From Bdellovibrionales bacterium (GTDB taxonomy: Bacteria; Bdellovibrionota; Bdellovibrionia; Bdellovibrionales; UBA1609): DNA of 64,000 nucleotides. Below the pieces are notes generated by a model. The model was not told the DNA's origin. It was given only the letters and a program-made list of their open reading frames with translations, and made no database searches. Below are positions 12,125 through 55,688 of this stretch, piece after piece. The stretch is from the NCBI GenBank assembly GCA_965205365.1, contig CBDBGT010000010.1, positions 328,048 through 392,047 on the forward strand. The letters are read 5' to 3'. The position numbers and the translations under genes are program-made. The first letter of the stretch is position 1. Every line of letters starts with the position of its first letter.

Positions 12125-12140
12125 TCCATGAGTCCTTATT

Positions 12141-12164: not shown

Positions 12165-12382
12165 GTCAAGCTGTACTACTAAGTACTTATAATCAAAGAG
12201 GAAATGACTAGAATACTAAGAAGCCCATAAATACAGGTAAAACATTGATTTTATTATTTTTTTTTATAGGTAACCCGAGTTCGAACTTTTTTCAGGACCT
12301 AAGTGCTGGATAAATAAAAGATCATCTTAAGCCTTTTGTAAGATTTAGTTGTTTTTTACTGATCTGCAAAAAGGAGCCGGGA

Positions 12383-14577: not shown

Positions 14578-14787
14578 AGGAAAAGGTACATTGTTGAAAC
14601 TGCTTTTGGGATTTTAAAGGAGGAATTTCATCTTGAACACTCAAGACACCGAAGCCCAAAAAACTTTGTGGTAAATTTACTTTCGGCACTAACGGCGTAC
14701 TGTTTGCGTCCAAGAAAACCCTCTATTAGACTTCAAGTACTTGAAGAAAGGCTGCTTCAGTAGGTTTAGAAAGTCCGAACTCGGGTT

Positions 14788-14893
14788 AGGTAGTGACTAT
14801 ACATCTGTTTGCCAATTTAAGAGCTTCTTCTTTAAATTCTTCTGAAAAAATATTGTACTTTTTTCTAGACTCTGTAGTCTCTTTCTTCTTCAT
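14788..14893 (-). pseudogene. IS3-family orfA N-terminal fragment
   Basis: My own translation gives MKKKETTESRKKYNIFSEEFKEEALKLANRC..., the IS3/IS911 orfA HTH pattern. It is truncated at the IS982 end. Confidence 0.45.
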
Positions 14894-15313
14894 GGTTTTT
14901 TACCTCTTCTTTTAGGTTTAGCTCCCACTTAGAAAAGTGTCCAGTATTTTTAGGGAAATCTAAAATTAATTGTCCACTAGCTTACAAATTCTTGTAAAGA
15001 AAAAAAATGAGTCACTACATTTTAGGTTTTAAGTCTTTTAACTTTGTCTGGCCATTATATTTGAACTCAACTGGGATTTTTTTAAAGGGGTGTCAAAGTC
15101 AGGAGAAAATGTAAACTATGTGTCAGGAAGGATATAGGCATGAGACATAAAACTCTCCAAGAGTTTTAAACTTGGGTTTTAGACTCTGTGTATAATATCA
15201 GTTACTAAAGTCTAAATTCAGGTTGAATATTAAAAAACTATTTTTTTTAATTCATACGGGTAGATAGAGTATGAGCATTGAGTTTATACGATATAAAATA
15301 AAGGGATATTCAT

Positions 15314-16051
15314 ATGAATAAAATCATTTAATTACTGTTGGTTACAACTACCGTATTGAGTTTAGCTGCTTGTGGATCTAGTAATTCTGATTCTAATCCA
15401 GATCCATGTCTTGGTTCTTCCCTCTTGCCGGGTGCTGTGTGTGAGGGTGGAGGAATTTATCTTGGAAGCCTTAGCCCTGGCGCCACTGATGGTAGTGGAA
15501 CAGATCACTATATCATCACCCCTGGGGGCTGTGAGGACATTCCATTAGGAAGTGTTTCAGGAGGTTCGGGGACAAATTCTTATGCATTAGATGATTTTAC
15601 AGTGACTTGTTCTGGTACGGATAGCTTACGTAAAGATTGGAATAATGATTCGACGAATTACTACGATATTCCAGGATTACAAAACTACACATCAACTTCT
15701 GGAACTGGTCATGGTGAAATTAATAAAGATTCAAATTACGGTTTAGCTAATACAGATGTAATTGTTGCCATCACTTCATCGTCTGAAGGGGGTTTTCACG
15801 CAGCAGCAAGGTACTGTCATAAGCTTGTTTATGGTGGTTATGATGATTGGCATTTACCTAATCGTTATGAGCTTAATTTAATGTACACAAATCACTCTGC
15901 TATTCCAGGTTTAGATCAAAGTGGTAATTACTATTGGTCTTCTACGGAGATCAACAATCATAGTGCGTGGGCCCAGCGCCTCTTAGATGGCCATCAGGGT
16001 AGTGACGGTAAGTTCAACTACAGCTTGGTTCGTTGTGTGCGGTGGTTTTGA
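15314..16051 (+). pseudogene. DUF1566 (Lcl C-terminal domain)-type lipoprotein with an in-frame TAA at codon 6
   Basis: ATG at 15314 gives MNKII*LLLVTTTVLSLAAC. The track ORF starts at TTG 15338 in the same frame. The C-terminus has WHLPNRYELNLMY...YYWSSTE...AW, typical of DUF1566. Confidence 0.55.
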
Positions 16052-16189
16052 GGCTTAAAAGGGCTCATGAGCTTTTTAGCCCTTTAGTTCTTTTATCTTA
16101 AGGAGGTTTTAAGCCTCCTTAAGATAAAGTATTCAATTTTAGAGACTCGCTTTTTGAGTAAATTAAAAACTATTTACTCAGCCATATTT

Positions 16190-16608
16190 TGTTAAAGGTT
16201 TAGAGAGTGAAGTTTCACACGTCAGTGCTCATGGAGCTTATGATGATTCAAAGATTTATGATAAGTGTGAAGAGTTAGGGATAAATCCGTTAATACCTCT
16301 AAAGAAAAATTCAAAGTTAAAACAACATGGCAACAGTAAAGCTAAGCCTATAAAGGGAGGTGAGGTTTTAAGAAATATAAAAAAATTAGGAAGGAAGTAA
16401 TGGAGATTAGAATCTGGTTACTTAAAAAGATCAATCTTAGAGAAAGCTATATATCGTTTTAAGGGTATTTTTAGAGGAGCTTTAAGTTTTAGGGAGTTTA
16501 AGAGTCAGTTTAATAAAGCTGCCATTAAATGTAAGATTTTAAATAAATTTTTATGCCCATCTGTAAAATTTAAATCACAGAAACAGTGGCTTCATGTGCA
16601 ACAACGCC
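16190..16608 (+). pseudogene. IS5-family transposase C-terminal fragment plus right end
   Basis: My own translation gives ...SAHGAYDDSKIYDKCEELGINPLIPLKKN... and ...GYLKRSILEKAIYRFKGIF...ILNKF, with internal stops. It ends in TCATGTGCAACAAC, the inverted repeat of 10365-10378. Confidence 0.5.
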
Positions 16609-16818
16609 GTTTTTTTTAATATTTTATAAGACTGTTTTAAAAAGAGAATAAACTTAAAATTGTCTTCATCTAAGACAAAGAGCAACAGAGTGCAACACTT
16701 TAAAAACCTGAAACCTTTGTTATTTTGAGTTGAGAAATTTTTAAGACTTTTGTCCTAAAGTTAACTAAGTTTTAATCGATATGTAAGTTGTAACCAAAAA
16801 AAAACAAAGGAGAATAAA
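16609..16818 (+). promoter_or_regulatory. upstream cassette U4 (copy F), 5' edge truncated by the IS5 end
   Basis: Near-identical to U1, U2 and U5. Confidence 0.6.
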
Positions 16819-17577
16819 ATGAATATGAAATCAAAATCTATATTACCAGTATGTTTATTATTTAGTTTTACAGCTTGTCAGAATGTTGAACACTCTTCTC
16901 AAGGGAAACGTACATTAACAAGTTTAGATAAGTCAGACACTTTATTAGGTGATTCAAGTGGATCAGACAGATCAAACCCTCAAGGGGGGGGGGGGGGGGG
17001 GGCAGATAGTCTCCTAGGTAACTCCTCAAATATATTAAATGGATCAAACTCTCAAGGCGGAAATAATCAAGATGACCTTACAGGTCAACCAAATCTTGAT
17101 CTTCCAACTGGTTGGTACGAAGGAAGGTGCCTAATAACACCTCAAGGTAGCAGTCTAAAACATAATTTAGGTATCGGCACTCTAGACTCAAAGAATATCA
17201 TTCATCGCACAGATTTCTACTCAGGAACTTCATGTGCAGATTACCCTACCGCTCCTCAATGGCCATATGTGATGCGTATTCGCGGTAACACCTTTAACGT
17301 TGCTGAATACGGCTTTGGTAATAATACTTCCTATTATACTCTATATAATGGTACAGAGGTGTTTCCGTTTCATGTTGATGATGATGGCACACTTTATATA
17401 ACCTATGCAGATACCCTAGAATCTGGTTTTCCTGTGGACCGCATTAACTATTTAAGGGGTTCTTCTATTGTGTTTAACGCTCCAACAAATCTAACTAGAG
17501 TGTATACACCTGTACCTTCACATTTAACCGCGAGGTTCAGAGAAAAAATGGTAAGCGGCGATCATCAAGTATGGTGA
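16819..17577 (+). CDS. phase-variable lipoprotein family, copy F; ON (G19 in frame)
   Basis: Single 252-aa track ORF: lipobox, ..SNPQGGGGGGADSLLGNSS.., FGNNTSY, FHVDDDGTLYI. Confidence 0.85.
   Translation: MNMKSKSILPVCLLFSFTACQNVEHSSQGKRTLTSLDKSDTLLGDSSGSDRSNPQGGGGGGADSLLGNSSNILNGSNSQGGNNQDDLTGQPNLDLPTGWYEGRCLITPQGSSLKHNLGIGTLDSKNIIHRTDFYSGTSCADYPTAPQWPYVMRIRGNTFNVAEYGFGNNTSYYTLYNGTEVFPFHVDDDGTLYITYADTLESGFPVDRINYLRGSSIVFNAPTNLTRVYTPVPSHLTARFREKMVSGDHQVW
16984..17002 (+). repeat. poly-G tract G19, copy F
   Basis: Counted directly. 19 is 1 mod 3, which is the in-frame state. Confidence 0.9.
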
Positions 17578-17592
17578 TCCCCGCTTTTAAAG

Positions 17593-17620
17593 TAAGCCCT
17601 TTATCTTAAAAGGGCTTATA
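17593..17620 (+). terminator. rho-independent terminator after copy F
   Basis: TAAGCCCTTT-atctta-AAAGGGCTTA hairpin. Confidence 0.55.
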
Positions 17621-17978
17621 ATTATAGATTTAAAAATTGACATTTTACTTAGTTAACAACTTATAAACAAAAACTTAAGGAAGCTTTATTAAACCAGTTC
17701 AGATAAACTGGTTTTTTTTAATTTTTAAATTAGAAAAAAATTTTAAAAAATTATTTTTAAAACCCTAGGCTCCTGCAAAGATTTCTTTTAAAAAATTACC
17801 CCCTAAATCCACTAAAACCTCTTAAGTCACACCACAGAAGTGTATTATTCACAGCCATGGTGTTCTAATTGTGTGTTGCTAAAATAACTTGTGATCTTTT
17901 AACTCCTTTTTTTTACCTCTAAGGTTTTTATAAAAATTCATATAAAACCAACATCAAAAAGAGCGCGTTAAAAATAAT

Positions 17979-18193
17979 AAATTTAGTTTTTTTTAATGTT
18001 TTATAAAGCTGTTTTAAAAAGAGAATAAACTTAAAATTGTATTGATCTAAGACAAAGAGCAACAGAGTGCAACACTTTAAAAACCTGAAACCTTTATTAT
18101 TTTGAGTTGAGAATTTTTTAAGACTTTTGTCCTAAAGTTAATTAAGTTTTAATCGATATGTGAATTAGAACCAAAAAAACAAAGGAGAATAAA
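17979..18193 (+). promoter_or_regulatory. upstream cassette U5 (copy G), palindrome mutated
   Basis: Same block as U1-U4, but reads TTGTATTgatctAAGACAA where the others have TTGTCTTcatctAAGACAA. Confidence 0.6.
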
Positions 18194-18999
18194 ATGAATA
18201 TGAAATCAAAATCTATATTACCAATATGTTTATTATTTAGTTTTACAGCTTGTCAGAATGTTGAACACTCTTCTCAAGGGAAGCGTACATTAACAAGTTT
18301 AGATAAGTCAGACACTTTATTAGGTGATTCAAATGACTCAGAAAGATCAAACCCTCAAGGGGGGGGGGGGGGGGGGGGGCAGATAGCCTCTTAGGTGACT
18401 CAAGCGGATCAAACACATCAAACCCTCAAAACGAAGACAACCAAGGTGACCTTACCAGTGAGTCAACCATTGATCTTCCAACCGGTTGGTATAAAACTGG
18501 CTGTATAAGACTGCCCAACGAATATATTTTTAACAACCTTAGGTACAACAGTGTAAAGTATTTTCTTGCCATAGATACTGATGACTTTCATTACTCCATG
18601 TATCCCAACAGTCCTTATAATTATTTTACTCACAGCGCTCTATATTTCCAAGAAACTAATTGTACTGGACGCTCTAATCCTAATTATGGGCAGGCTGGGG
18701 ACAGCCTTACACACAGCCCATACTATGACACCAATGATAACTTTGGTAACAATACCTCCTATTTTACAATTGGTCTTGGTTCAACTAGAGCCTTTGGATT
18801 TCATATTGATGATGATGGTGCCCTTTATATAGATCATGCTATTGCTACTGATGACATAGGTTCAGGTTTCCAAGAAAGTACTTCTTCTAATTTTATCAAT
18901 GACCCAACAAGTGGAGTTAGGTATACACGCACATCTTCAAAAGCAGTTTGGAGCACTACCCGCAACAAATGGGTATGGCCAGGTATCAATATGTTATGA
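18194..18999 (+). CDS. phase-variable lipoprotein family, copy G; OFF (G21)
   Basis: Track ORF 18194-18394 ends ..GGGGGGGQIAS*. The frame from GCA at 18379 (ADSLLGDSSGSNTSNPQNEDNQGDL...) is open into track ORF 18598-18999, as I verified by translation. Confidence 0.75.
18359..18379 (+). repeat. poly-G tract G21, copy G
   Basis: Counted directly. G22 or G19 is needed for ON. Confidence 0.9.
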
Positions 19000-40331: not shown

Positions 40332-41177
40332 TTACTCCGATGTTAAATTAAATAGGTACATGCCATTTTGAAACTCCGCAGATGATAAAAAAGTATGCCT
40401 CTTATTGTTTTGAAAATTTAAAAAAAATGACTTCTCCTTAAATGCATATTCTAAAGTTTTACCTTCTAAACAAGTTAAACCATTTTCAATATCCTTGGTG
40501 GGACCAAAACATTCAAATCCAGCACTCACACTAAGCAAGGGATAAATTATTTTTACTCTAACCCTTATTCCTGTTAAAACATTCCCCTCTGTAAACTGTG
40601 GCAAATCAAAAATCACATCAGAGATGTTGTTAAATACAATGTCACCATCATCAGGAGAAACGCTGCCTGGAGTGTTTGAAGAACCCATATCGATAATCAA
40701 CTGACCACTTCTGTGGGTGCTCTTATTATAGGTTTCATTTTTTTTCCTAAAAAAAACACCTGTAGGTCGGTACACACTTTTCATTAAAAGAGGGGTGTTT
40801 AATGAAGAAAGCGTGACCTCTCTTGCAAAATACATAATCGTTTTACTCTCCATAGTTCCCATAGATGCGTCTTGAGTGTATTCAAAACTTCTCACAAACC
40901 CTGCCCCATCGAAAGAACCCTGAGTGCCATCTAGCTCTTCATTGAAATAACGAACATTCACTCCCGAAAGTGCTATGGATTTTAATGTGGCTTCTAAAAA
41001 ATGTATATCAGATTCAATTTGATTTATTTTCTCAAATTTAGTACTTGTTATTTTTAAGTTCAGCATTATAGAAGCACCTCCAAAAATAATGAAAGAGCCT
41101 ATTGTAAAAGAAACTATAAGCTCCAACAATGTCATACCTGACATTAGTTTGAAATTCTTAAATTCTATTTTTTCCAT
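40332..41177 (-). CDS. prepilin-type (pseudopilin / minor pilin-like) protein
   Basis: 281 aa starting MEKIEFKNFKLMSG|MTLLELIVSFTIGSFIIFGG. This is a class III signal with Gly at -1 and Glu at +5. Confidence 0.65.
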   Translation of the reverse strand: MEKIEFKNFKLMSGMTLLELIVSFTIGSFIIFGGASIMLNLKITSTKFEKINQIESDIHFLEATLKSIALSGVNVRYFNEELDGTQGSFDGAGFVRSFEYTQDASMGTMESKTIMYFAREVTLSSLNTPLLMKSVYRPTGVFFRKKNETYNKSTHRSGQLIIDMGSSNTPGSVSPDDGDIVFNNISDVIFDLPQFTEGNVLTGIRVRVKIIYPLLSVSAGFECFGPTKDIENGLTCLEGKTLEYAFKEKSFFLNFQNNKRHTFLSSAEFQNGMYLFNLTSE

Positions 41178-42151
41178 AAAACCTCCAAAAAATCATTTTT
41201 CAATAACTTAAAAGGCAAAAGCAGCTCAGCGACAATTGGTTTTTCTAAAATATCCTCATACCCTTTAACGCCCATCTGAAAAACTTCATTCTTCTGTGGT
41301 TTATAAAATGTTCCAAATATTAAATCCCATACAGATAAGACAACACCAAAATTTTTATCCCCATGCTTTACATCTGAACTATGATGTATTTGATGCATAT
41401 AGGGGCTTATAAACATATAACTTAACCTCCCATATCCTATGCGAATATGACTATGTCTTAAATGTATAATGATATTGAAAAATATCACATTATAAACAAT
41501 TGGATTTATATAAATGTCAGGTGTTCCATAAATTTTTACTTTTAAAATTAAAATTATATACCCTAAACTTACAAATACCGCTGAAAAAATTTCGTTAAAT
41601 AAATAATCCAGAGGGTGTTGTCGGGTTTTAGTAAACGGAGTTAAAGATGTGGCCAGATGATGAATCATATGAAAACGCCAGAATGTTTTTATTTTATGCC
41701 TTAAAAAATGACTCAAGAATGCTGAAAAATCAATTAATAAAAAAGTTACAAACGAGAGCCAAATAGGCCCATAATAGGCATCTAAATAAATTGCTGGTTC
41801 TAAACTTAGAAGCCCAGAATCTCTAAGGGTGGATTCAACAAAATCCTTAATTTCATTTAAATTAATGGCAAAAAAACCAAAGAACAATGGTTTAAATAAA
41901 AATCGAAGAAAAAAGTAATAAAAATCTTTATACATTTCTAAACGACAACACTTATTATAAAAAAACCCATTAATTTCTTTTATAACATTTTTATTTTCAA
42001 TAAAAAACATGTACGCAATACCAAATAAAAAACTAGTGATAAACCATAAAAAATAATAAAAATGATAGTTTTCAAAAAATATTATTTTATTAAATAAGTC
42101 TAATGGTTGAGTCCAAAAAAATAATAAAAAATCATCAATTCGCTCCCTCAT
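41165..42151 (-). CDS. fatty acid hydroxylase / sterol desaturase-superfamily membrane protein
   Basis: His boxes HFLRH, HMIHH and HQIHH, and multi-TM. I chose the start at Met34 (MRERIDDF...) of track ORF 41165-42250, because the first 33 codons read the out-of-frame remnant of the pilin-like gene tail. Confidence 0.7.
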   Translation of the reverse strand: MRERIDDFLLFFWTQPLDLFNKIIFFENYHFYYFLWFITSFLFGIAYMFFIENKNVIKEINGFFYNKCCRLEMYKDFYYFFLRFLFKPLFFGFFAINLNEIKDFVESTLRDSGLLSLEPAIYLDAYYGPIWLSFVTFLLIDFSAFLSHFLRHKIKTFWRFHMIHHLATSLTPFTKTRQHPLDYLFNEIFSAVFVSLGYIILILKVKIYGTPDIYINPIVYNVIFFNIIIHLRHSHIRIGYGRLSYMFISPYMHQIHHSSDVKHGDKNFGVVLSVWDLIFGTFYKPQKNEVFQMGVKGYEDILEKPIVAELLLPFKLLKNDFLEVLWKK

Positions 42152-42180
42152 AAATTCACTTCTTTCACCTAAGGGCACCA

Positions 42181-42378
42181 TCAGCGCCATCGCCACTCGG
42201 TGGAGGCGGCGGTGGATTGTATGAACATGTATTTTCCATAGTTTTTCCAATTTAAAGTCTCTTTGTTCAATCTAGAATTGCTATAATAGCCAAAGCTAAG
42301 AACAAAAGTTAGCAGTATTGACGCGGACACCATCACTTCAATGAGCGAAAACCCATTTAACTTCTTATTTATCATCAA
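42181..42378 (-). pseudogene. internally deleted copy (Y0) of the large type IV pilin-like gene; keeps its own start and prepilin leader
   Basis: MMINKKLNG|FSLIEVMVSASILLTFVLSFGYYSNSRLNKETLN is joined directly to the C-terminal ...ACTATGGAAAATACATG... region of the full-length copies, but out of frame (..WKNYGKYMFIQSTAASTEWRWR*). Confidence 0.75.
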
Positions 42379-42389: not shown

Positions 42390-43019
42390 TTAAAACTGTC
42401 TTATGGCAAAAGTTTGAACAATCTTATCTAAACCTGAACAGGCGAACTCTCCATTTAAACAAAATGCAATGGAAAAACATTCAGTATGGCTCATAGTGCA
42501 ATCAACATAATTTGAATTGAGATTGTTTCCTATGTCTTTTACAGGAAACGTCACATAAGCTAAGGCTTTAGTAGATGAACCACCTACCCTAACAGGTTCT
42601 ACGTTTAAACTTAATCCTGTGTAAATACCTTTTTCATACTGCCTTAACAGAGGAAGAGAGGGTGGAGGGGTAGCTGGAGCAGGACTGCCTCCACTTGGTC
42701 CTCTTTGCCCTGAAATACATAGTTTTTGGCCATTTTCTAGATTTTTAAGAAAGCATCCTTCTTCAATTTCAAGCCAACACAATTTAAGTCCAAGATTTAA
42801 CCCTGGATCTTCTTTTGAACCTGCTGGGCACCCTACAAGCTCCTGCCCAAGATCGTATGCTTCGCGTGTTTTTCTTACAATTTCAAGTTGAGCATTAATT
42901 CTTAAAAGCCTTCTTTTAAAAATTATAGTCGTGTTTTCACCCATATCAAGGGACGTTGTTACATTAGCTATTAATACAAGGGCAAAGGTTACGATCATTA
43001 TTACAAATGAAATTAACAT
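42390..43019 (-). CDS. small Cys-containing membrane-anchored protein X (pilus-locus associated)
   Basis: 209 aa with an N-terminal hydrophobic helix MLISFVIMIVTFALVLIAN. It is the only full-length copy. Units 2 and 3 keep only its first ~32 and last ~70 codons. Confidence 0.55.
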   Translation of the reverse strand: MLISFVIMIVTFALVLIANVTTSLDMGENTTIIFKRRLLRINAQLEIVRKTREAYDLGQELVGCPAGSKEDPGLNLGLKLCWLEIEEGCFLKNLENGQKLCISGQRGPSGGSPAPATPPPSLPLLRQYEKGIYTGLSLNVEPVRVGGSSTKALAYVTFPVKDIGNNLNSNYVDCTMSHTECFSIAFCLNGEFACSGLDKIVQTFAIRQF

Positions 43020-43025
43020 AGTTAC

Positions 43026-44543
43026 CCTAAATGCGACAAAAATTTAAAGGGTTTTAAAGAAGAAAAAGATTGAAAGACCTAAGGCAACTTGGTTTCATTG
43101 AGTTACTAAAAACAAAAAACATTGTAACCAAAGGCCATTTCAATGAGATATAGAAGACAAGATATTTTAAGCGTCGTCAAATCCGATTTACAAATTGAGT
43201 TTGCTAAGCAGAGCATTACGTCTTACTCAGGGCTTGAACTTTTCAGAAAATACTTTCACCTCATAAACCTTAATTCCCGCATCAGATCTGCCTTTCGCGG
43301 TTTTGACTTTGGCGGAGACTACAGTGTTGTTCACTATGTTTTAGTTTTTATTGCACTGTGGCTTACAGGCGGTAAGCGCCTGCGACATATAGGCTTTATT
43401 GGCGATGACCCTCTTGTTAAAAGGCTTTGTGGGCTTAAGACTTTACCATCAGATCGAACTGTCAGCAGATGGCTAGGTCAGTTTACAAATGATTCGCTCC
43501 AAGCCTTAGTAAAGTTAAATTCAGATATGGCCTTAGAAAAAGTTGGAGAGCTTGACCTAAAAACTGTAACTCTAGATTTTGACGGCACTGTTCTAAGCTG
43601 TGGCAATCAAGTTGAATGGGCTTTTAGAGGCTACAATCCAAAGAGACGATACTCAAAAAGTTACTTTCCACTTCTTTGCTATATTGCTCAAACTGGACAT
43701 TTTTTAAAAGTCAAAAATCGTCCAGGCAATGTTCATGATGGAAAATCAGGCGCTTTGGAAACCATCAAAGCATCTGTTAGTGAGGTCGAATCTAAACTTG
43801 GAAAAGTTAGACTTGAGACCCGTATGGATTCAGCATTTTTTAAAGAGGACATTTTAAAGTATTTACTTTCATCAAAAATAGAGTTTGCGATGAAGGTTCC
43901 GATGTGGAGATGGCTAGGGTTAAAAGACATGATCAACAGTCGCATTAGATGGAATCACTCAAATTCAAAGCTGGCTTGGTTTTACAAGGAGATTGAAGTT
44001 CCTGCATGGGGTATCACTATACCGCTTTATTTTTTCAGATCAAAAATCTCTGACAAGATTCCAAAGTCAGGCCACCAGTTAGATTTGTTTACTCCAGATG
44101 ATGGTGTTTATGAGTACTCAGTCATCACTTCAAATAAAGACATCTGTGCGGATAAGGTTTTAGATTTTTTCAATGGCAGGTGTGCAATGGAGCATCAGAT
44201 TTCAGAACTAAAGGGTGAGTTTGCATTTGATGTGGTGCCAACCAGATCCTATCAAGGCAACTCTGCTCATCAAAACATTTCACTCTTGGCTTACAATTTA
44301 GTTCGCAATTTTCAAATTGATTCAAGTTTAACAGAAGCTAGGAAAAAAACTGCAAAAAGGACAAATATTTTTTCTGCTCAGTCTTTAAAAACACTGCGGT
44401 TTGAGATGATTGCAACTGCTGGCAGAATTCTAAACTCTTCAGGTGCTAAAATTTTAAGAATCAATCAGAATACTCAAAGAGAGCACCTTTACCAAAAAAT
44501 TCAAAAGCATCTAAAGGCAGCTTAAATTTTTGTCGCATTTAGG
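43026..44543 (+). mobile_element. IS1380-family insertion sequence (1518 bp)
   Basis: IRs CCTAAATGCGACAAAAATTTA (both ends). The 4-bp duplication TTAC is at 43022-43025 and 44544-44547. Confidence 0.85.
43143..44525 (+). CDS. IS1380-family transposase
   Basis: 460 aa with PSDRTVSRWL, TLDFDGTVLSCGNQVEWAFRGYNPKRRYSKSYFPL and CAMEHQISELKGEF...LLAYNL. This fits the IS1380 pattern. Confidence 0.8.
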   Translation: MRYRRQDILSVVKSDLQIEFAKQSITSYSGLELFRKYFHLINLNSRIRSAFRGFDFGGDYSVVHYVLVFIALWLTGGKRLRHIGFIGDDPLVKRLCGLKTLPSDRTVSRWLGQFTNDSLQALVKLNSDMALEKVGELDLKTVTLDFDGTVLSCGNQVEWAFRGYNPKRRYSKSYFPLLCYIAQTGHFLKVKNRPGNVHDGKSGALETIKASVSEVESKLGKVRLETRMDSAFFKEDILKYLLSSKIEFAMKVPMWRWLGLKDMINSRIRWNHSNSKLAWFYKEIEVPAWGITIPLYFFRSKISDKIPKSGHQLDLFTPDDGVYEYSVITSNKDICADKVLDFFNGRCAMEHQISELKGEFAFDVVPTRSYQGNSAHQNISLLAYNLVRNFQIDSSLTEARKKTAKRTNIFSAQSLKTLRFEMIATAGRILNSSGAKILRINQNTQREHLYQKIQKHLKAA

Positions 44544-44910
44544 TTACTTAACCTCATTATAAGAAGAAGGTTTATTAATATTCTTGCTCAATTCAACTAT
44601 AAATACAAATCCTATGAAATAAGACTTTAGATTAAAGTTTCTATAAAATTTAGTTTGAGAATGATTTAGTTTACTACAAAAAATGAATTGATTGAAGAAT
44701 TAATGCTACATAAATAGGTTCCATTTAAGATAAAAGTCTAGCGCCTCACCACTTTAAAACTTTTCCACTGTTGAACAATTATCCTAAGGCTCCCCTTCCT
44801 GATTGCACCAACTCTTAATTAAAAACCAAAAATAATAATAAAAAATCCTTAATTTACTCCTATAGACTCACTTCTTTCACCCGTTGGCACCATCAGCAGA
44901 GGGGCCAGCA

Positions 44911-46562
44911 CTAAGGACCATCACCACCATCATTACCACCATCACCATCACCATCACTACCATCAGCATCACCACCATCACGATTACCATCTTTGCCGCC
45001 GTCACCGTCACGACCGCCGCCGCTACTGCCACCGTCATTACTAACCCAGCTACCGTCACCCCGGCCGCCACCAACCCACTTTCTCCCGCAGCTCCCGCTA
45101 CCACCACTCGGTGGAGGAGGTGGATTGTATGAGCATGTATTTTCCATAGTTCTTCCACCACGAGGACACCAACCCACTCCTGTATAATAACCCGTGCACG
45201 GTCTACAAGTAGATAACGGCAGTGACGCCATGATCTGAGACGCAGCCACTGCTGATATATTGTGAGCTATATCTATATAACGTGCCTTTAAAGACATTCG
45301 ACATCCAAAACCTAAATTAGAATAACGTAAATTATACCCCAAATTAGACTCTGCTCTATTTATGTTGTCAGGCGCCTTACCACACAAGGTCACTTCGTTA
45401 CAACGCACCCATTTTCCTGACGTTGTAAAAGATGTCTTAACCGCTCCACCTGGACATACTGGAACTCCAGCTGGACCCTCAAACGTTGACTCATCTTTAC
45501 ACACCATTACAAAAGCTTTTGCTTTTGACTCCGCAAAGCCTGTTAAATCAACATTCATATTGATTCCTGTTGCACACTGAGGTGTTGGAGCGCTTTGATA
45601 CATATTGATGTTAATATTTCTTAGCTCGTTTTCATCAGCTGCAATTCTTGGATATGAAAAAAGAGAACTTAATGAACATTTTTTGTTGTCATTGTTTTTA
45701 CCAATATAACTTGTTGTCGCTGTAATCCAAAAACCTATATCAGAACACCCATTGTCTTCAACAGTGATTCCATCTAAAAAATCTTTTGACTGTGGATGCC
45801 CTAACCTACTCCCACCAGGTATGGCTAACACTGGCCATGGATTACAAGACCGCTCTCCTGTTAGAATGTTATAAACCTCTATTTTTAAGGTTGTTACTGG
45901 TGATTTTAATCTGTACTCAACATCAGAATCTTCTAAACTCATAGGCGCACTTCCCCTATAAGAGCGTCCATGAACAGTTGAGCAAAACCTACTGTCCTTA
46001 TTATAAATAGCATTTAATGTGGACATCACCCCTCGAAGAGACAAATAATTTCTAATAATGGTGTCTGAGCCTGTTTTAATCCACAGCTCTTCCTCATCAC
46101 CGACAATCTCATCATCATCAAAAAGAACATTAGATTTACCTAAACTGTTGTTTAAAAATTTAATTTCATTTGTATTGTCATCTAACTTAGCTACGGATTT
46201 TGCAACGCCCAAAGTCTTTAACTTATCTAAAGTTCCACGGGTATAGGATACACACTCTCTATGTAAGTTTAAAGTCTCTTTGTTCAACCTAGAATTGCTA
46301 TAATAGCCAAAGCTAAGAACAAAAGTTAACAGTATTGAAACAGACACCATCACTTCAATAAGTGAAAACCCATGTAACTTCTTGTGGTTCTTGTCTAAGC
46401 CTGAACAGGTGAACTCTCCATAGTTGTTTCCTATATCTTTTACAAGAGGCGTAACATAGGCTAAGGCTTTAGTAGATGAATCGCCTACCGTAACAGGTTC
46501 TATGTTTAAGCTTAATCCTGTGTAAGTACCTTTTTCATGCTGCCTTAGCAGAGAGAGAATAA
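44911..46562 (-). CDS. large type IV pilin-like protein Y1, with no start codon of its own; open frame runs from the C23 tract to the stop
   Basis: Track ORF 44911-46353 (480 aa) begins only at a GTG inside the prepilin hydrophobic segment. My translation shows the same frame is open back to the tract (LILSLLRQHEKGTYTGLSLNIEPV...GEFTCSGLDKNHKKLHG|FSLIEVMVSVS...). It has a Gly/Asp-rich tail. Confidence 0.7.
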
Positions 46563-46585
46563 GGGGGGGGGGGGGGGGGGGGGGG
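46563..46585 (-). repeat. homopolymer tract G23 on plus strand (C23 in the coding sense), unit 2
   Basis: Counted directly (8+10+5). Confidence 0.9.
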
Positions 46586-46679
46586 TGAATTGAGTTTTGA
46601 CCCTTAAAAACTTTCTTTTAAAAATCATAATCATGTTTTTACCCATATGAAGAGATGTTGTTACAAATAAAATTAACAT
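46586..46679 (-). CDS. X-derived leader ORF (start codon plus 31 codons) feeding into the C tract, unit 2
   Basis: ATG at 46679 gives MLILFVTTSLHMGKNMIMIFKRKFLRVKTQFT followed by poly-Pro. With C23 it terminates at a TAA 15 nt after the tract. Confidence 0.6.
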
Positions 46680-46697
46680 AGCGACTTAACCTTACTT

Positions 46698-47719
46698 AAC
46701 CCGAGTTCGAACTTTCTAAACCTACTGAAGCAGCCTTTCTTCAAGTACTTGAAGTCTAATAGAGGGTTTTCTTGGACGCAAACAGTACGCCGTTAGTGCC
46801 GAAAGTAAATTTACCACAAAGTTTTTTGGGCTTCGGTGTCTTGAGTGTTCAAGATGAAATTCCTCCTTTAAAATCCCAAAAGCAGTTTCAACAATGTACC
46901 TTTTCCTCAGGAGTAGTTTATCAAAAAGAGGAACAAACTTATTTTTCATATTGGATTTAAGATTTGTTATGACTTGAACCCCTTTACTCATCAATTTTTC
47001 AAATAGCTTTTGGGATATATATCCTTTGTCTCCAAACAATTTTCCAAAAATATTCTCAGCTAAACCCTCTACAGGCTTTGTATCATGAACATTTCCTGGG
47101 GTTATGGTAAAACTTAAGAGCTCCCCTTTGTGAGAAATTACTATGTGAACTTTAAAACCAAAGAACCAGCCCATTGTTGATTTCCCACGTTTTGCAAGTC
47201 CTTTAAAGGTTTTGTGACGACCGATTCTTTTGTTATTACAAACAACAATGGGACTGGAGTCTACAACAGATATTCCTGTGCAAATATTTGATTGCATAAG
47301 TGAGTGTAAAAAAATAAGAATTTGAGGTGCTGAAGATTTTTTAAGTTCTACAAACCTATTGTAGGACAAGAGTTTTGGGAAATAAGGTTTTAGAAATTTT
47401 TGAACATAACCTGTATAGAAAGCTTTAAAATTTCTGAAGCCGGAAAATTGGAATAATAAACAGATGGTGATGACTTCAGACTCAGATAACGCAGATGGAA
47501 AACCTCTCTTTCTTTTGCTGGGTATGAGTTTGGACTGTTCTTTGTTTAACCCTAAAATAAAGTCGTCAACAAGAGTAAAAACTTCTATAATTTGATTCTC
47601 TTCGATCATTCCCGGCTCCTTTTTGCAGATCAGTAAAAAACAACTAAATCTTACAAAAGGCTGGGATGATCTTTTATTTATCCAGCACTTAGGTCCTGAA
47701 AAAAGTTCGAACTCGGGTT
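46698..47719 (-). mobile_element. IS982-family element, copy 3 (1022 bp, intact)
   Basis: Same ends as copy 2. The flanking duplication is ACTT (or TACTTA). The uninterrupted target CCTTACTTAAGT is present in the paralogous unit at 49810-49821. Confidence 0.9.
46722..47609 (-). CDS. IS982-family transposase (identical to 29681-30568)
   Basis: The 295-aa translation is identical in the track. Confidence 0.8.
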   Translation of the reverse strand: MIEENQIIEVFTLVDDFILGLNKEQSKLIPSKRKRGFPSALSESEVITICLLFQFSGFRNFKAFYTGYVQKFLKPYFPKLLSYNRFVELKKSSAPQILIFLHSLMQSNICTGISVVDSSPIVVCNNKRIGRHKTFKGLAKRGKSTMGWFFGFKVHIVISHKGELLSFTITPGNVHDTKPVEGLAENIFGKLFGDKGYISQKLFEKLMSKGVQVITNLKSNMKNKFVPLFDKLLLRKRYIVETAFGILKEEFHLEHSRHRSPKNFVVNLLSALTAYCLRPRKPSIRLQVLEERLLQ

Positions 47720-48016
47720 ACTTAAGTAAAAAAATTTATTAATATTCTTGCTCAATTTAACTATAAATACAAATCCTATAAAATAAGGCTTTAGATTAAA
47801 AGTGCTATAAAGTTTAGTTTAAGAGCGATTTAGTTTACTACAAAAGATGAATTGATTCCGTTTAAGACAAAAGCCTAGTGCTTCCACCTCATTACTTTAA
47901 AACTTTTCCACTGTTGAACAATTATCCTAAGGCTCCTCTTCCTGATTACACCAACTCTAAATTAAAAACCAAAAATAATAATAAACACTTAATTTACTCC
48001 TATAGACTCACTTCTT

Positions 48017-49680
48017 TCACCCGTTGGCACCATCAGCAGATGGGCCACCACTACCATCAGAACCAGGACCACCATCACCACCATCAGCAGCACCACCACC
48101 ACTACCAGTGCCACCATCTTTGCCGCCGTCACCGTCACGACCGCCGCCGCTACTGCCACCGTCATTACTAACCCAGCTACCGTCACCCCGGCCGCCACCA
48201 ACCCACTTTCTCCCGCAGCTCCCGCTACCACCACTCGGTGGAGGAGGTGGATTGTATGAGCATGTATTTTCCATAGTTCTTCCACCACGAGGACACCAAC
48301 CCACTCCTGTATAATAACCCGTGCACGGTCTACAAGTAGATAACGGCAATGGCGCCATGAACTGAGACGCAGCCACTGCTGATATATTGTGAGCTATATC
48401 TATATAACGTGCCTTTAAAGACATTCGACATCCAAAACCTAAATTAGAGTAACGTAAATTATACCCCAAATTAGACTCTGCTCTATTTATGTTGTCAGGC
48501 GCCTTACCACACAAGGTCACTTCGTTACAACGCACCCATTTTCCTGACGTTGTAAAAGATGTCTTAACCGCTCCACCTGGACATACTGGAACTCCAGCTG
48601 GACCCTCAAACGTTGACTCATCTTTGCACACCATTACAAAAGCTTTTGCTTTTGACTCCGCAAAGCCTGTTAAATCAACATTCATATCAATTCCTGTTGC
48701 ACACTGAGGTGTTGGAGCACTTTGATACATATTGATGTTAATATCTCTTAACTCATTTTCATCAGCTGCAATTCTTGAGTATGAAAAAAGAGAGCTTAAT
48801 GAACATTTTTGATTGCTGTTGTTTTTACCAATATAACTTGTTGTCGCTGTAATCCAAAAACCTATATCAGAACGCCCATTGTCTTCAACAGTGATTCCAT
48901 CTAAAAAATCTTTTGACTGTGGATGCCCTAACCTACTCCCACCAGGTATGGCTAACACTGGCCATGGATTACAAGACCGCTCTCCTGTTAGAATGTTATA
49001 AACCTCTATTTTTAAGGTTGTTACTGGTGATTTTAATCTGTACTCAACATCAGAATCTTCTAAACTCATAGGCGCACTTCCCCTATAAGAGCGTCCATGA
49101 ACAGTTGAGCAAAACCTACTGTCCTTATTATAAATAGCATTTAATGTAGACATCACCCCTCGAAGAGACAAATAATTTCTAATAATAGTGTCTGAGCCTG
49201 TTTTAATCCACAGCTCTTCCTCCTCACCGACAATCTCATCATCATCAAAAAGAACATTAGATTTACCTAAACTGTTGTTTAAAAATTTAATTTCATTTGT
49301 ATTGTCATCTAACTTAGCTACGGATTTTGCAACACCCAAAGTCTTTAACTTATCTAAGGTTCCACGGGTATAGGATACACACTCTCTATGCAAATTTAAA
49401 GTTTCTTTGTTCAATCTAGAATTGCTATAATAGCCAAAGCTAAGAACAAAAGTTAACAGTATTGAAACAGACACCATCACTTCAATGAGTGAAAACCCAT
49501 GTAACTTCTTGTCTAAGCCTGAACAGGTGAACTCTCCATGGTTGTTTCTTATGTCTTTTACAAGAGGCGCAACATAAGCTACGGCTTTAGTAGATAAATG
49601 GCTTACCCTAACAGGTTCTATGTTTAAGCTTAATCCTGTGTAAGTACCTTTTTCATGCTGCCTTAGCAGAGAGAGAATAA
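48017..49680 (-). CDS. large type IV pilin-like protein Y2, with no start codon of its own; open frame runs from the C25 tract to the stop
   Basis: Track ORF 48017-49480 (487 aa). The same frame is open back to the tract (LILSLLRQHEKGTYTGLSLNIEPVRVSHL...GEFTCSGLDKKLHG|FSLIEVMVS...). Confidence 0.7.
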
Positions 49681-49705
49681 GGGGGGGGGGGGGGGGGGGG
49701 GGGGG
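49681..49705 (-). repeat. homopolymer tract G25 on plus strand (C25 in the coding sense), unit 3
   Basis: Counted directly (10+10+5). Confidence 0.9.
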
Positions 49706-49799
49706 TGAATTGAGTTTTGACCCTTAAAAACTTTCTTTTAAAAATCATAATCATGTTTTTACCCATATGAAGAGATGTTGTTACAAATAAAATTAACAT
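49706..49799 (-). CDS. X-derived leader ORF feeding into the C tract, unit 3
   Basis: ATG at 49799; same leader sequence as unit 2. With C25 it terminates at a TGA shortly after the tract. Confidence 0.6.
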
Positions 49800-50239
49800 A
49801 GCGACTTAACCTTACTTAAGTAAAAAAATTTATTAATATTCTTGCTCAATTTAACTATAAATACAAATCCTATAAAATAAGGCTTTAGATTAAAAGTGCT
49901 GTAAAGTTTGGTTTAAGGGCGATTTAGTTTACTACAAAAGATGAATTGATTCCGTTTAAGACAAAAGCCTAGTGCTTCCCCCTCATTACTTTAAAACTTT
50001 TCCACTGTTAAACAGTTATCCTAAGGCTCCTCTTCCTGATTACACCAACTCTAAATTAAAAATCACTTTCTAATTTTTAATTTTCTTCTGTTTAGTTAAA
50101 TCTAGAAAAACCTCACTAAATTCACTTTTTACGCTCTCTAAATAAATTTCTATTGTCTTTAATGCCCAAGCCTGTTTTTGATCTCTTCTAGATTAACTCT
50201 TTGTTCAAATGTATGAATCCCCTATGGATGTCAATATTT

Positions 50240-51263
50240 AACCCGAGTTCGGACTTTCTAAACCTACTGAAGCAGCCTTTCTTCAAGTACTTGAAGTCTA
50301 ATAGAGGGTTTTCTTGGACGCAAACAGTACGCCGTTAGTGCCGAAAGTAAATTTACCACAAAGTTTTTTGGGCTTCGGTGTCTTGAGTGTTCAAGATGAA
50401 ATTCCTCCTTTAAAATCCCAAAAGCAGTTTCAACAATGTACCTTTTCCTCAGGAGTAGTTTATCAAAAAGAGGAACAAACTTATTTTTCATATTGGATTT
50501 AAGATTTGTTATGACTTGAACCCCTTTACTCATCAATTTTTCAAATAGCTTTTGGGATATATATCCTTTGTCTCCAAACAATTTTCCAAAAATATTCTCA
50601 GCTAAACCCTCTACAGGCTTTGTATCATGAACATTTCCTGGGGTTATGGTAAAACTTAAGAGCTCCCCTTTGTGAGAAATGACTATGTGAACTTTAAAAC
50701 CAAAGAGAACCAGCCCATTGTTGATTTCCCACGTTTTCAAAGTCCTTTAAAGGTTTTGTGACGACCGATTCTTTTGTTATTACAAACAACAATGGGACTG
50801 GAGTCTACAACAGATATTCCTGTGCAAATATTTGATTGCATAAGTGAGTGTAAAAAAATAAGAATTTGAGGTGCTGAAGATTTTTTAAGTTCTACAAACC
50901 TATTGTAGGACAAGAGTTTTGGGAAATAAGGTTTTAGAAATTTTTGAACATAACCTGTATAGAAAGTTTTAAAATTTCTGAAGCCGGAAAATTGGAATAA
51001 TAAACAGATGGTGATGACTTCAGACTCAGATAACGCAGATGGAAAACCTCTCTTTCTTTTGCTGGGTATGAGTTTGGACTGTTCTTTGTTTAACCCTAAA
51101 ATAAAGTCGTCAACAAGAGTAAAAACTTCTATAATTTGATTTTCTTCGATCATTCCCGGCTCCTTTTTGCAGATCAGTAAAAAACAACTAAATCTTACAA
51201 AAGGCTGGGATGATCTTTTATTTATCCAGCACTTAGGTCCTGAAAAAAGTTCGAACTCGGGTT
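50240..51263 (-). mobile_element. IS982-family element, copy 4 (1024 bp, defective)
   Basis: Flanking duplication is ATTT (or TATTTA). It has the same TGA nonsense change, the same 2-bp insertion and the same GTTCGGAC end variant as copy 1. The track shows split ORFs 50737-51153 and 50264-50740. Confidence 0.85.
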
Positions 51264-51425: not shown

Positions 51426-53927
51426 TCACTCAATCTTAAAAGTTAATTTTTCTTTTAAAGCATCAACTTTCACAGTCACACCTTTTTTTACTTCCCCATT
51501 AAGAACCATAAGTGACAAAGGGTTTATAAGAAATTTCTCAATAGTTCTTTTTAAAGGTCTTGCTCCAAATTCTGGATTATAGCCTTTTTTAAAAATAAAC
51601 TTTTTAGCCTCATCGGTGAAGAAAATTTTAATTCCCCTACTCATTATACGGTCTTGAACCTCTAATACTAAAAGATCTACAATCTTTATTAAACCCTTAT
51701 CTTTTAAAGCATTATACTTTAAAACCTCATCAATTCTATTTAAAAACTCTGGTTTAAAATGTATTTTTAAATCCTCATTTTTTAAATTTGATGTCATGAC
51801 TACCAAGGTATTCTTAAAATCTACAACCTTTCCTTGACCATCACTAAGCCTTCCCTCATCAAAAACTTGAAGAAGTACGTTTAAAACATCTAAATGAGCT
51901 TTTTCAATTTCATCTAGTAAAATTACTGAAAATGGCGCTCTTCTAATTTTTTCAGTTAACTGCCCCCCTTCTTTATAGCCAACATATCCTGGAGGAGAGC
52001 CTATTAGTTTAGATACTGAATGTTTTTCCATATACTCGCTCATATCTACTCTAACAATTTTTTCTTCATCATTAAAAAGCTGTTCAGCTAAAGCCTTTAC
52101 AGTCTCTGTTTTTCCAACCCCTGTAGGGCCTAAAAATAAAAAAACCCCTAAAGGTTTGTTTGGATCTGAAAGCCCTGCTTTTGACCTCAACACGGCTTTA
52201 GATATGGTTTCTAAGGACTCATCCTGACCCACCACTCTTTCTTTTAAATTTTGCTCAAGTTTAAGGAGTTTTTCTCGTTCACTATCTATAAGCTTTGAAA
52301 CTGGAATCTTAGTCCATTTAGAAATCACCTTTGCAACTTCCTCAGCACCCAAACTGTCTGTTAAAAAACCTGTTGTTTTTAAAGAAGCCTGTATCAGAGC
52401 TATTTTCTGTTCAAGCTCAGGCAAAGTTCCATATTTAAGTTCTGCAGCAACCTCTAAATCTCCAGTTTTTTCAACCTGTTGAAGTTTTAGCTTTGCATTT
52501 TCATACTCTACCTTTAAATCCTTTTCCTTATTAAGAATAGTCTTCTCTTTTTCCCAAGTTGTTACAAGCTCACTTTTTTTAGACAGCTTCTCATCTAAAA
52601 GTTTTTTTACAGAATCTAGGCTTGCATCTTCTTCAGACTCTAAGGCCTTAACTTTTATCTGCAATCTAATGATTTCTCTTTGAAGCTCATCGATTTGTAT
52701 GGGTACTGAGTTAATTTCAATATTTAACTGACTTGCTGCCTCATCAATTAAATCAATGGCTTTATCTGGTAAAAACCTATGATTAATATACCTAGAGCTC
52801 AAGTCCACAGCAGCACTTAAAGCTTCATCTTTAATCCTTACTCCGTGATGAAGTTCATACTTTTCTTTTAATCCTCTTAAAATTGCAAGGGCATCTTCTT
52901 TAGTTGGTTCATCTACCACAGTAGACTGAAACCTTCTTTCTAAGGCCTTATCTTTTTCAATATACTCTTTATACTCATCAAGGGTTGTAGCACCAACTAC
53001 ACGAAGCTCCCCTCTAGACAATGCTGGTTTTAACAGTTGAGCTGCATCCATAGCCCCTTCTGATTTCCCTGCCCCAACTAAAGTATGAAGCTCATCAATG
53101 AACAGTATAATCTCGCCTCCTGAATCAGTAGCTTCCTGAACTACTGCCTTAAGCCTTTCTTCAAACTCACCTTTATATTTAGCCCCAGCTACTAAAAGAC
53201 CCATATCTAAGCTGTAGATTTTTTTACCTAATAGAGTGTCTGGAACATCCCCATCTTGAATTCTCCCAGCAAGGCCCTCAACAATGGCTGTTTTTCCTAC
53301 GCCAGGCTCTCCAATAAGAACTGGATTGTTCTTTGTCCGCCTTAATAAAACCTGAATAGTTCTACGTATTTCTTCATCTCTCCCTATTACAGGGTCTAAC
53401 TTATTTTCAAATGCCATTTGATTTAAATTCTTACAATATTTATTAAGAGCATCATGTGTACCTTCAGGATTGTCTGTAGTGACTTTCTTTCCACCTCGTT
53501 TTTTTAGAATCCATTCTTTTAATGAGTTTTCTGTAAAATCTATTCCTTTAAAACATTCTAAAAATTCAGATTGGTTTAACATAAGATAAAACAAAAAGTG
53601 TTCTGTAGAGATAAATTTATCGCCCATCTCTTTTGCTTTTTCTAATGCCATGGACACTGCTCGCTGAATGTATACTGAAAAAGGAACCGATCCCTGAAGC
53701 GGAGTACTTAACCTAGGTGCGGCCTCCATTTTTTTCTCAAAAACACTTTTTATTTCAATTTTATGGTCTGTAAAAAATTTTCTAAAAAGAGCATCCCCAT
53801 TCCCCATAAATTCAAGAAATAAACACCCAGCATTAACTTCAGAAAAAGAACGCGCTAAAGCTTTTTCATGAGCAGCCTGGAAACTCTCCATGACAATCTG
53901 TGTAAACTTAGAATTCATATTGTCCAC
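51426..53927 (-). CDS. clpB: ATP-dependent chaperone/disaggregase ClpB
   Basis: 833 aa with two AAA+ modules ([15 protein letters not shown]; [15 protein letters not shown]) separated by a long coiled-coil middle domain. The start may be ATG 53918 (MNSKFTQ...). Confidence 0.9.
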
Positions 53928-54944: not shown

Positions 54945-55688
54945 ATGAGGTATGTTATGGCTAAAAAAAAGAAAAATACTAGAAAAAAAACTACAACTAA
55001 AAAAATAACTAAGAAAAAACCTACAACTAAAAAAATAACTAAGAAAAAAACTGCAACTAAAAAAATAACTAAGAAAAAAACTACAACTAAAAAAATAACT
55101 AAGAAAAAAACTACAGCTAAAAAAATAACTAAGAAAAAAACTACAGCTAAAAAAATAACTAAGAAAAAAACTGCAGCTAAAAAAATAACTAAGAAAAAAA
55201 CTACAACTAAAAAAATAACTAAGAAAAAAACTGCAGCTAAAAAAATAACTAAGAAAAAAACTGCAGCTAAAAAAATAGCGAAGAAGAAAAGCACTGTTCT
55301 TAAAAAAATTTCAAAAAGAGAAGCAGCAAACAAAAAAATTCAAGCTCAAAAGCTTGTAGATTCCATAAAAACCATAACTAAAAAACCTCTTACACAAGAC
55401 TTTAAACCCAAAAAAAATAAAAAACCTGCAACTCCCAACCTAGAAGAAATTTTAAAAAATAAATCCTATGTAACTCCTATAAATCCTTTCGTAATTAAAG
55501 ATACAAAGAAGAAAAAAGATACTGATCATGATGAATCAGAAGAAGGCACATCTTCAATAAATGATCTTTTAGTTGACAGTGGAAACCTAGAAAAATTAGA
55601 TTCAGATGACGAACAAGAAGATGAACTCTATGAAGATATCAGTAACTTAATCGACGAAGACTCTAATGACGATGACAACTACTTCTAA
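54945..55688 (+). CDS. lysine-rich repeat protein with an acidic C-terminal tail (histone H1-like composition)
   Basis: 247 aa. It has ~10 copies of KKITKKKT[TA][TA], then DSDDEQEDELYEDISNLIDEDSNDDDNYF. Confidence 0.6.
   Translation: MRYVMAKKKKNTRKKTTTKKITKKKPTTKKITKKKTATKKITKKKTTTKKITKKKTTAKKITKKKTTAKKITKKKTAAKKITKKKTTTKKITKKKTAAKKITKKKTAAKKIAKKKSTVLKKISKREAANKKIQAQKLVDSIKTITKKPLTQDFKPKKNKKPATPNLEEILKNKSYVTPINPFVIKDTKKKKDTDHDESEEGTSSINDLLVDSGNLEKLDSDDEQEDELYEDISNLIDEDSNDDDNYF
54991..55290 (+). repeat. about 10 tandem copies of a 30-bp unit (CTACAACTAAAAAAATAACTAAGAAAAAAA-like)
   Basis: The period of 30 bp is visible directly. Units differ mainly at ACA/GCA/GCT codons. Confidence 0.85.

Follow-up and report, generated by a model that had tools for sequence, protein, structure and literature searches.

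The window analysed here is a stretch of 64,000 nucleotides from a Bdellovibrionales bacterium (assembly GCA_965205365.1, contig CBDBGT010000010.1, positions 328,048 to 392,047), in which three related units, each built from a gene X and a gene Y that encodes a pilin-like protein, lie on the minus strand. In minus-strand order, the region comprises ClpB, a split copy of an IS982-family insertion sequence (IS), an inter-unit upstream region (U), unit 3, a second U region, an intact IS982-family copy, unit 2, a third U region, a different IS, unit 1, a fatty-acid-hydroxylase gene and a pseudopilin-like gene (Table 1). Unit 1 retains two genes, with the stop codon of X followed by a strong Shine-Dalgarno (SD) sequence and start (GAGGGGAG-TTG-ATG) of Y1, the body of which carries a large internal deletion compared with Y2 and Y3, and a frameshift. 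Units 2 and 3 are organised differently: a leader, which at 94 nt is 100% identical between the two units, is followed by a homopolymeric C tract (C23 and C25, respectively), a linker and then Y, with the leader and linker (together X') aligning with the two ends of X.

Recalculation of the coordinates placed the leader ATGs at 46679 and 49799, each 94 nt 5′ of its tract as given in the preliminary description, and the distance from ATG to the last C of the tract at 116 nt in unit 2 (C23) and 118 nt in unit 3 (C25). The frame that begins with this last C (L-I-L-S-L-L-R-Q-H-E-K-G...) is free of stop codons and of ATG, GTG and TTG for 210 nt in unit 2 and 201 nt in unit 3, enters the prepilin motif G↓FSLIEVMV (the arrow marks the cleavage site) and continues into bodies listed mechanically as 480 and 487 aa (roughly 490 codons). 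The first start-type codon in the Y frame of either unit is the GTG of ...G-F-S-L-I-E-V, which is 3′ of the prepilin cleavage site. As sequenced, both leaders end soon after the tract, one at 44 aa (46545..46679; stop 16-18 nt on) and the other at 48 aa (49653..49799; stop 26-28 nt on). When tract lengths of 19-28 were simulated, a fused open reading frame (ORF) was obtained solely at C21, C24 and C27, encoding 588-590 aa in unit 2 and 592-594 aa in unit 3, and translation at the remaining lengths ended 43-49 codons in; the earlier expectation that C24 would restore the frame in both units and read T-P7-L was reproduced. Three extra in-frame ATGs in the leaders (M12, M16 and M18) leave the frame argument unaffected. 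The leader ATG is the sole entry into Y in units 2 and 3, because these units lack the SD (GAGGGGAG) and ATG seen in Y1 and in relatives, and no other start lies in frame. Both units thereby show features of contingency loci, with a hypermutable repeat in the 5′ coding part, between the start codon and the functional body, a repeat number that sets the frame of the body relative to the start, and a Y body that has no independent start. Runs of this kind are not expected by chance, as the window (34% G+C) contains 8 G or C runs of at least 11 nt, compared to an expectation of approximately 6e-4 C runs and 7e-5 G runs.

Other roles for the tract were considered and rejected. The in-frame candidates for internal initiation at near-cognate codons are only ATT, CTG and ATA, none of which has an upstream SD; a transcriptional role as a promoter spacer was discarded due to the absence of a start codon 3′ of the tract, and a feature of the plus strand was discarded since no meaningful ORF overlaps the tracts.

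A third copy of the fusion confirmed that the predicted ON state exists. Three proteins make up the 90%-identity cluster of Y: a contig of 404,524 bp encodes Y3 and Y2, and one of 799,960 bp encodes P0003. P0003 is a single fused 548-aa protein, annotated as one ORF from the leader ATG, in which MLILFVTTSLHMGKNMIMIFKRKFLRVKTQFT-PPPPPP-LILSLLRQHEKG... runs straight into ...KNHKKLHGFSLIEVMV..., and its leader encodes the same 32 residues as those of units 2 and 3. The T-P6-L of this protein corresponds to C21, an in-register length (deduced from the protein, not the DNA). P0003 and unit 2 are equal at 519 of their first 520 residues, the sole difference being R311 versus C311. The three copies have C21 (P0003, as deduced), C23 and C25, one per register, so that repeat number differs among otherwise near-identical copies as in contingency loci, and the occurrence of these lengths beside near-identical flanks indicates that the tract changes far faster than the flanks do. 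The leaders of units 2 and 3 are identical despite 5-7% synonymous divergence elsewhere (Poisson p ~0.004).

Comparison of units 2 and 3 over the first 440 codons of the Y body, counted from the cleavage-site Gly, showed 20 synonymous and 10 non-synonymous differences, corresponding to a dN/dS of 0.14 (binomial p = 2.8e-7 against neutrality). The X' linker has 2 synonymous and 8 non-synonymous differences (dN/dS ~1.2), which fits no constraint, while its frame is open and its indels are in frame only; the linker apparently needs merely to stay open. The simplest reading of these patterns is that Y has been under purifying selection while dependent on the X' start, with all three copies sharing the fusion, and purifying selection on a Y that is missing its own start would require translation through the tract. 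Gene conversion between the copies could obscure which of them is under selection, but not the selection on Y itself. Units 2 and 3 diverge most in the Gly/Asp tail, which has a dN/dS of 2.3. The C-terminal tail of P0003 was also seen to be shorter and different (..NPPPPLLGGGGDGPGGPCGGDPGGGGGECRP) after a PPPP(P) run, compared with window positions 44911-45060, and the Gly-rich tail may be a second variable region.

Alignment of the DNA of the three units, and of the proteins with the X homologues of metagenome contigs L081, L083 and L084, validated the earlier suggestion that what is left of gene X forms the leader and the post-tract linker. Both alignments show that units 2 and 3 equal X minus four segments, namely 14 residues of the hydrophobic N-terminus, a central Cys-containing domain of ~75 residues, a 22-residue segment (D-C...H-T-E-C-F...F-C), and the X C-terminus and stop along with the SD and ATG of Y. 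The tract is positioned at the A-T-P-P-P-S codons of X (ACC CCT CCA CCC), where 2 point changes would yield a C11 seed, and this position is the joint of an internal X deletion. All deletions 3′ of the tract are in frame, as is the 9-nt difference between unit 2 and unit 3.

A HMMER scan of 1.84 billion representatives returned 71 Y relatives at E < 1e-3, the nearest with 30-39% identity. Twelve of the 71 homologues were retrieved, 11 of which start at a Met of their own, with ~10-20 aa of leader ahead of G↓(F/Y/M)(S/T)...; the remaining one has an apparent 45-aa leader that contains an internal Met at the usual distance. Four metagenome contigs with 32-37% G+C (L081, L083, L084 and L085) have a conserved gene order: in the first three, X and Y are encoded by distinct genes (212-252 aa and 465-496 aa) with 11-53 nt between them, and a single ORF of 594-633 aa comes next, and L085 has kept the upstream neighbours and Y, with no X gene called. 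G or C runs of at least 7 nt are present in none of these four contigs. As the relatives have separate X and Y genes and no tracts, the fusion and the tract are derived in the genome of the window. A word-indexed search of 5.8 billion proteins using Y as the query found its own 3-member cluster only, a scan of genome contigs with P0003 found no relative, and a tblastn search of plasmids with Y gave no match. A metagenome scan with the Y alignment gave 600 generic GFSLIE stretches among the matches listed, none confirmed, and an exact metagenome search with the leader-tract junction gave 0 matches.

The prepilin (class III) signal was detected by profile searches at 22.2-23.9 bits for PF07963 (N_methyl; cut-off 21.2) and 18.1-19.1 bits for TIGR02532 (cut-off 16.3), with the motif above thresholds in P0003 (residues 100-120) and in Y1. 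The pilin-type G↓F(S/T)L(I/V)E followed by a hydrophobic stretch of ~20 residues is conserved in the family alignment, which also contains ~14 invariant cysteines; Pfam found no further domain in Y. An AF2 model built from a 14-sequence alignment (mean pLDDT 77) has a helix at residues 11-60, a beta-rich body of ~370 aa and a disordered tail from residue 433, and Y is thereby predicted to have the lollipop shape of pilins, in which a long N-terminal helix is followed by a globular domain. Single-sequence AF2 of Y reached a pLDDT of 32, with no usable model, and when the alignment-based model was compared with the PDB using Foldseek, only weak Ig-like noise was obtained, with no hit at E <= 0.001. 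Judged from these features, Y is best described as a putative large modular pilin-like surface protein, possibly an adhesin. A short leader is present in the Y1 remnant (MINKKLNG↓F) and in the retrieved relatives. The fused leader of units 2 and 3 has a pI of 10.2, with 14 K/R versus 5 D/E, and no transmembrane-like window, the class III core being the sole hydrophobic segment; such a basic leader would fit prepilin topology, in which the leader is cytoplasmic and is cut on the cytoplasmic face.

Tracts of this type are not confined to the Y units. Six paralogous lipoprotein genes on the plus strand (3755-18999; signal MNMKSKSILPVCLLFSFTAC↓QN) each have a poly-G tract within the ORF, 129-165 nt past the ATG. 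The ON register is 10+3n in all six, and the only open copy is that with G19 (16819..17577). This set looks like a second, larger phase-variable family, and long G/C tracts between the start or signal and the body of a surface protein appear to be a habit of this genome. The phase-variation reading of the Y units is therefore supported by the six lipoprotein tracts.

Taken on its sequence, the locus is to all appearances a real slipped-strand translational phase-variation locus. We consider it likely that the X'-Y fusion is switched on and off in translation by slipped-strand mispairing at the C tract and that prepilin peptidase then removes the X' part. According to this proposal, an ancestral X-Y gene pair would have been duplicated, and in-frame deletions would have spared only 31 codons at the head and 61-64 codons at the tail of X, and removed the X stop and the ribosome-binding site and ATG of Y. 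A pure C run would have arisen at the internal X deletion joint by the ACC CCT CCA CCC codons and grown to 21-25 nt. Slipped-strand mispairing during replication would then alter the length of the tract, with 21, 24 and 27 joining the ATG to Y through T-Pn-L in a product of ~590 aa. This ON product would be a prepilin-like precursor, the basic leader of which (101-104 aa) would be kept in the cytoplasm and removed at G↓F by prepilin peptidase, and after cleavage Y would be released in its normal form, as a large, modular, pilin-like surface protein rich in Cys. Slippage would be reversible within populations, the ON precursor would be inserted in the membrane and cleaved, and Y would be expected to take its place in a type IV filament. 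At 21-25 repeats, mutability should be very high, and the switch may therefore be noisy rather than binary, a noise generator with about one third of cells ON.

A number of observations weigh against this interpretation. The leader ATG is preceded by a weak SD (AAGG with a 10-nt spacer), 7-8 prolines in a row are a ribosome-stalling context, and an IS982-family insertion 18 nt 5′ of the unit 2 leader ATG parts unit 2 from its U region; due to the weak SD, the proline run and this insertion, expression may be low even when the gene is ON. The region is IS-rich and contains a dead Y1. Tract lengths vary between paralogues rather than at one locus, and 23 and 25 are within homopolymer sizing error and are possibly consensus calls of a mixed population. 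The window ORFs that were searched yielded neither a peptidase gene nor one for type IV filament machinery. The leader is also not short: the extension ahead of the cleavage site, which had been put at ~110 aa, is in fact 101 aa in unit 3 and 104 aa in unit 2 at C24, and 103 aa in P0003. As the preliminary description had recognised, a leader of ~100 aa is atypical for prepilin peptidase substrates, since reviews give 6-26 aa for the leader peptides of class III substrates (PMC4471445) and do not describe prepilin leaders beyond about 30 aa.

The dead Y1 and the IS elements raise the question of whether the units are simply decaying pseudogenes of an IS-rich region, in which the Y start has been lost, the copies are unexpressed and the C tract has undergone neutral expansion without consequence. 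Such decay would be consistent with 2 of the 3 copies being out of frame, with the IS 18 nt 5′ of the unit 2 ATG, with the destruction of Y1 at the ancestral site, and with the neutral X' linker and weak SD. We regard it as quite unlikely. It is at odds above all with the dN/dS of the Y body (0.14, p = 2.8e-7, units 2 versus 3) and with the in-register copy P0003; in addition, frames of ~550 codons have remained uninterrupted in an AT-rich genome where stops abound, all X'/Y indels are in frame, and Y is conserved in relatives. These copies are also the sole intact Y genes on record for the genome, as indicated by the 3-member protein cluster. If the copies are expressed, their expression could still be independent of the length of the tract, with RNA polymerase slippage or ribosome frameshifting placing ~1/3 of mRNAs in frame in every cell and the tract acting as a constant attenuator. 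A/T runs of ~9 or more are established sites of transcriptional slippage, other repeats being possible according to the authors of that work; the tract far exceeds the length of the RNA-DNA hybrid, and all three registers are tolerated among the copies. G/C runs, however, slip less than A/T runs in the polymerases studied, and programmed sites usually fix both length and offset, in contrast to the different lengths of these near-identical copies. Length and register vary among the three copies, one of which is in frame, and the relatives are without a run, which is not the pattern of programmed slippage or recoding. Expression of this kind is thus unlikely as the full explanation, and it is compatible with variation at the DNA level, which it would merely blur; transcriptional slippage is plausible as a modifier.

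The one-slip pattern could also be a sizing error of the assembly, in which case the true tracts would be in register (for example C24 in both units) and the genes simply ON fusions. Homopolymers of more than 20 nt are mis-sized on all platforms, and in a Bifidobacterium study the reference tract length and the main population length disagreed, with G-tract sequencing artefacts reported (PMC9187656). An artefact of this kind would have to account for three copies with three lengths in all registers, and for six lipoprotein tracts that span G11-G24 in mixed registers, and we consider it very unlikely. Even if mis-sized, a tract this long would be hypermutable, given that the change from G8 to G11 in Campylobacter jejuni brings a 10-fold increase in mutability (PMC3401435). 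With mis-sizing, a different set of copies would be ON, but the locus would be of the same nature.

Slipped-strand phase variation is a textbook mechanism, but to our knowledge nearly all known cases are in host-adapted pathogens and commensals and have tracts of ~7-15 units. The logic of the Y units can be compared with that of the Neisseria pilC1/pilC2 genes, for which translational phase variation by a 5′ coding poly-G tract of G9-G15 is described (Jonsson et al. 1991, cited in PMC5320596). Both have an early-ORF G/C tract in a pilus-associated surface protein, a frame that determines ON or OFF, and paralogues with differing tract lengths. In pilC as described there, the tract lies in the signal-peptide region of the gene itself, and its product, a protein with a Sec signal, is not a pilin, whereas the Y units have C21-C25 and their start and tract lie in the remnant of another gene, ~300 nt before a class III signal. 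The pilin precursors bbr_0113 and bbr_1889 of Bifidobacterium breve (PMC9187656) match the Y logic even more closely than pilC does, with two ORFs joined at certain G-tract lengths only, a second ORF that lacks initiation, and a reference length that differs from the population. They are unlike Y in being sortase (LPXTG) pilins with a Sec signal and G11-G12 tracts in a Gram-positive organism, and in that their first ORF is native to the gene, as its 5′ end, rather than exapted from a neighbour. C. jejuni likewise has many in-ORF polyG/C tracts in surface-related genes, as does the window with 8 in 64 kb, and the mutability of its tracts rises with length (PMC3401435); its modal length is 9 compared to 11-25 in the window, the organism of which has relatives known only from metagenomes. 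The modular pilins PilB and PilC of Streptococcus sanguinis (PMC8179133, PMC10191384) have a class III signal, a long alpha-1 helix and a large extra domain, as predicted for Y, and differ in that no solved structure is detectably related to the Y body by fold or by sequence and in the length of the leader (101-104 aa in the Y fusions compared to 6-26 aa).

Compared with known systems, the Y switch differs in its tracts of up to 25 units, in having its start and tract in an exapted remnant of a neighbour, in acting on a class III protein and in its resulting leader of ~100 aa. It belongs to an apparently little-studied, low-G+C, Gram-negative lineage whose relatives come from metagenome assemblies only. 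How the switch evolved can be read directly, as the ancestral X-Y pair stands beside the derived fusions and the tract is exactly at the former proline codons. We tentatively suggest a broader possibility, that a decayed neighbour gene has been exapted as a switch cassette consisting of a start, C21-C25 and a neutral spacer, that its ~100 aa serve as a cytoplasmic pro-region cut off by the peptidase, and that the multi-copy, IS-mobilised array together with the lipoprotein family amounts to high-noise surface bet-hedging. If the precursor is processed, leader length would be essentially unconstrained for prepilin peptidase, since the class III signal would lie ~100 residues in, behind a leader ~4 times the longest described; this would matter for pilin prediction tools, which search near N-termini only, and for pilin fusion engineering. 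The locus is also a warning for annotation, as in 2 of the 3 recorded Y genes the start has been set at an internal ATG past the cleavage site, and these two are hence stored without the signal. The deposited Y2 and Y3 proteins (P0002 at 46353 and P0001 at 49480) begin at the ATG directly after the GTG (MVSV...), and because these annotated starts lie 3′ of the cleavage site, both proteins are without the signal motif and the family is hidden from pilin predictors.

Table 1 Features of the Y units and other tract-bearing genes in the window
Feature	Position	Strand	Remarks
ClpB	51426..53927		first gene in minus-strand order
Second IS982-family copy	50240..51263	minus	transposase split in two ORFs, 50737..51153 and 50264..50740
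U region, unit 3	49804..50079	minus	inter-unit upstream region, presumed promoter site
Unit 3 leader	49706..49799	minus	ATG 49799-49797 and 31 codons, MLILFVTTSLHMGKNMIMIFKRKFLRVKTQF(T); N-terminal remnant of gene X; sole start codons before Y3
C25 tract (G25 on plus strand)	49681..49705	minus	register off by +1; leader ORF ends 49653
Unit 3 X' linker	49499..49680	minus	61 codons including last tract C; LILSLLRQHEKG...GEFTCSGLDKKLH; C-terminal X remnant fused in frame to Y; no start or stop codon
Y3	48017..49498	minus	class III signal core G↓FSLIEVMVSVSILLTFVLSFGYY, Cys-rich beta-rich body, Gly/Asp-rich tail; stop 48017
U region, unit 2	47720..47985	minus	now parted from unit 2 by IS
IS982-family element	46698..47719	minus	transposase 46722..47609; perfect 15-bp terminal inverted repeats AACCCGAGTTCGAAC; ACTT target duplication; typed via blastn
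Unit 2 leader	46586..46679	minus	ATG 46679-46677; sequence equals unit 3 leader
C23 tract (G23 on plus strand)	46563..46585	minus	register off by -1; leader ORF ends 46545
Unit 2 X' linker	46372..46562	minus	64 codons including last tract C; 9-nt in-frame insertion (K-N-H) compared with unit 3
Y2	44911..46371	minus	class III signal core and body; stop 44911
U region, third occurrence	44546-44913		after unit 2 in minus-strand order (U of unit 1)
Transposase ORF (DDE_Tnp_1_4), second IS kind	43143..44525	plus	between unit 1 U region and X
Gene X, unit 1, intact	42390..43019	minus	209 aa; hydrophobic N-terminus, conserved cysteines, ...SPAPATPPPS...
Y1 remnant, unit 1	42181..42378	minus	own SD GAGGGGAG, ATG, short leader MINKKLNG↓FSLIEVMV
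Lipoprotein poly-G tract	3884-3895	plus	G12
Lipoprotein poly-G tract	5395-5411	plus	G17
Lipoprotein poly-G tract	6765-6788	plus	G24
Lipoprotein poly-G tract	9600-9610	plus	G11
Lipoprotein poly-G tract	16984-17002	plus	G19
Lipoprotein poly-G tract	18359-18379	plus	G21

The two IS982-family copies (46698-47719 and 50240-51263) have the same orientation and flank unit 3 and the U regions in the manner of a composite transposon, a bracket that may account for the spread of near-identical Y units, for example to the contig of P0003. A promoter and terminator scan did not exceed shuffled expectation, with 22 promoter-type matches compared to 19 and 0 terminators; because of this no promoter is claimed, including for a TTCATA-16-TATGAT match inside the leader. 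No Rfam family and, using ARAGORN, no tRNA was found in the window.

Downstream of unit 1 (minus strand, 40332-42250), the fatty-acid-hydroxylase ORF (41165..42250) overlaps the pseudopilin-like ORF (40332..41177), the latter being below threshold in the profile search. L081 (7466-9367) and L084 (5437-7320) have a hydroxylase domain and a pseudopilin-like C-terminal part (GYSLIELMISAA...) in one ORF of 627-633 aa, the C-terminal part having been read in L081 and the hydroxylase domain found in both L081 and L084. Fusion of a prepilin-like module to such a membrane hydroxylase is in itself unusual. On the plus strand, a 247-aa ORF (54945-55688) has ~11 tandem decapeptide repeats (T-T-K-K-I-T-K-K-K-x) with a 30-nt period and 20 overlapping repeat registers, and encodes an extremely basic protein with an acidic C-terminus.

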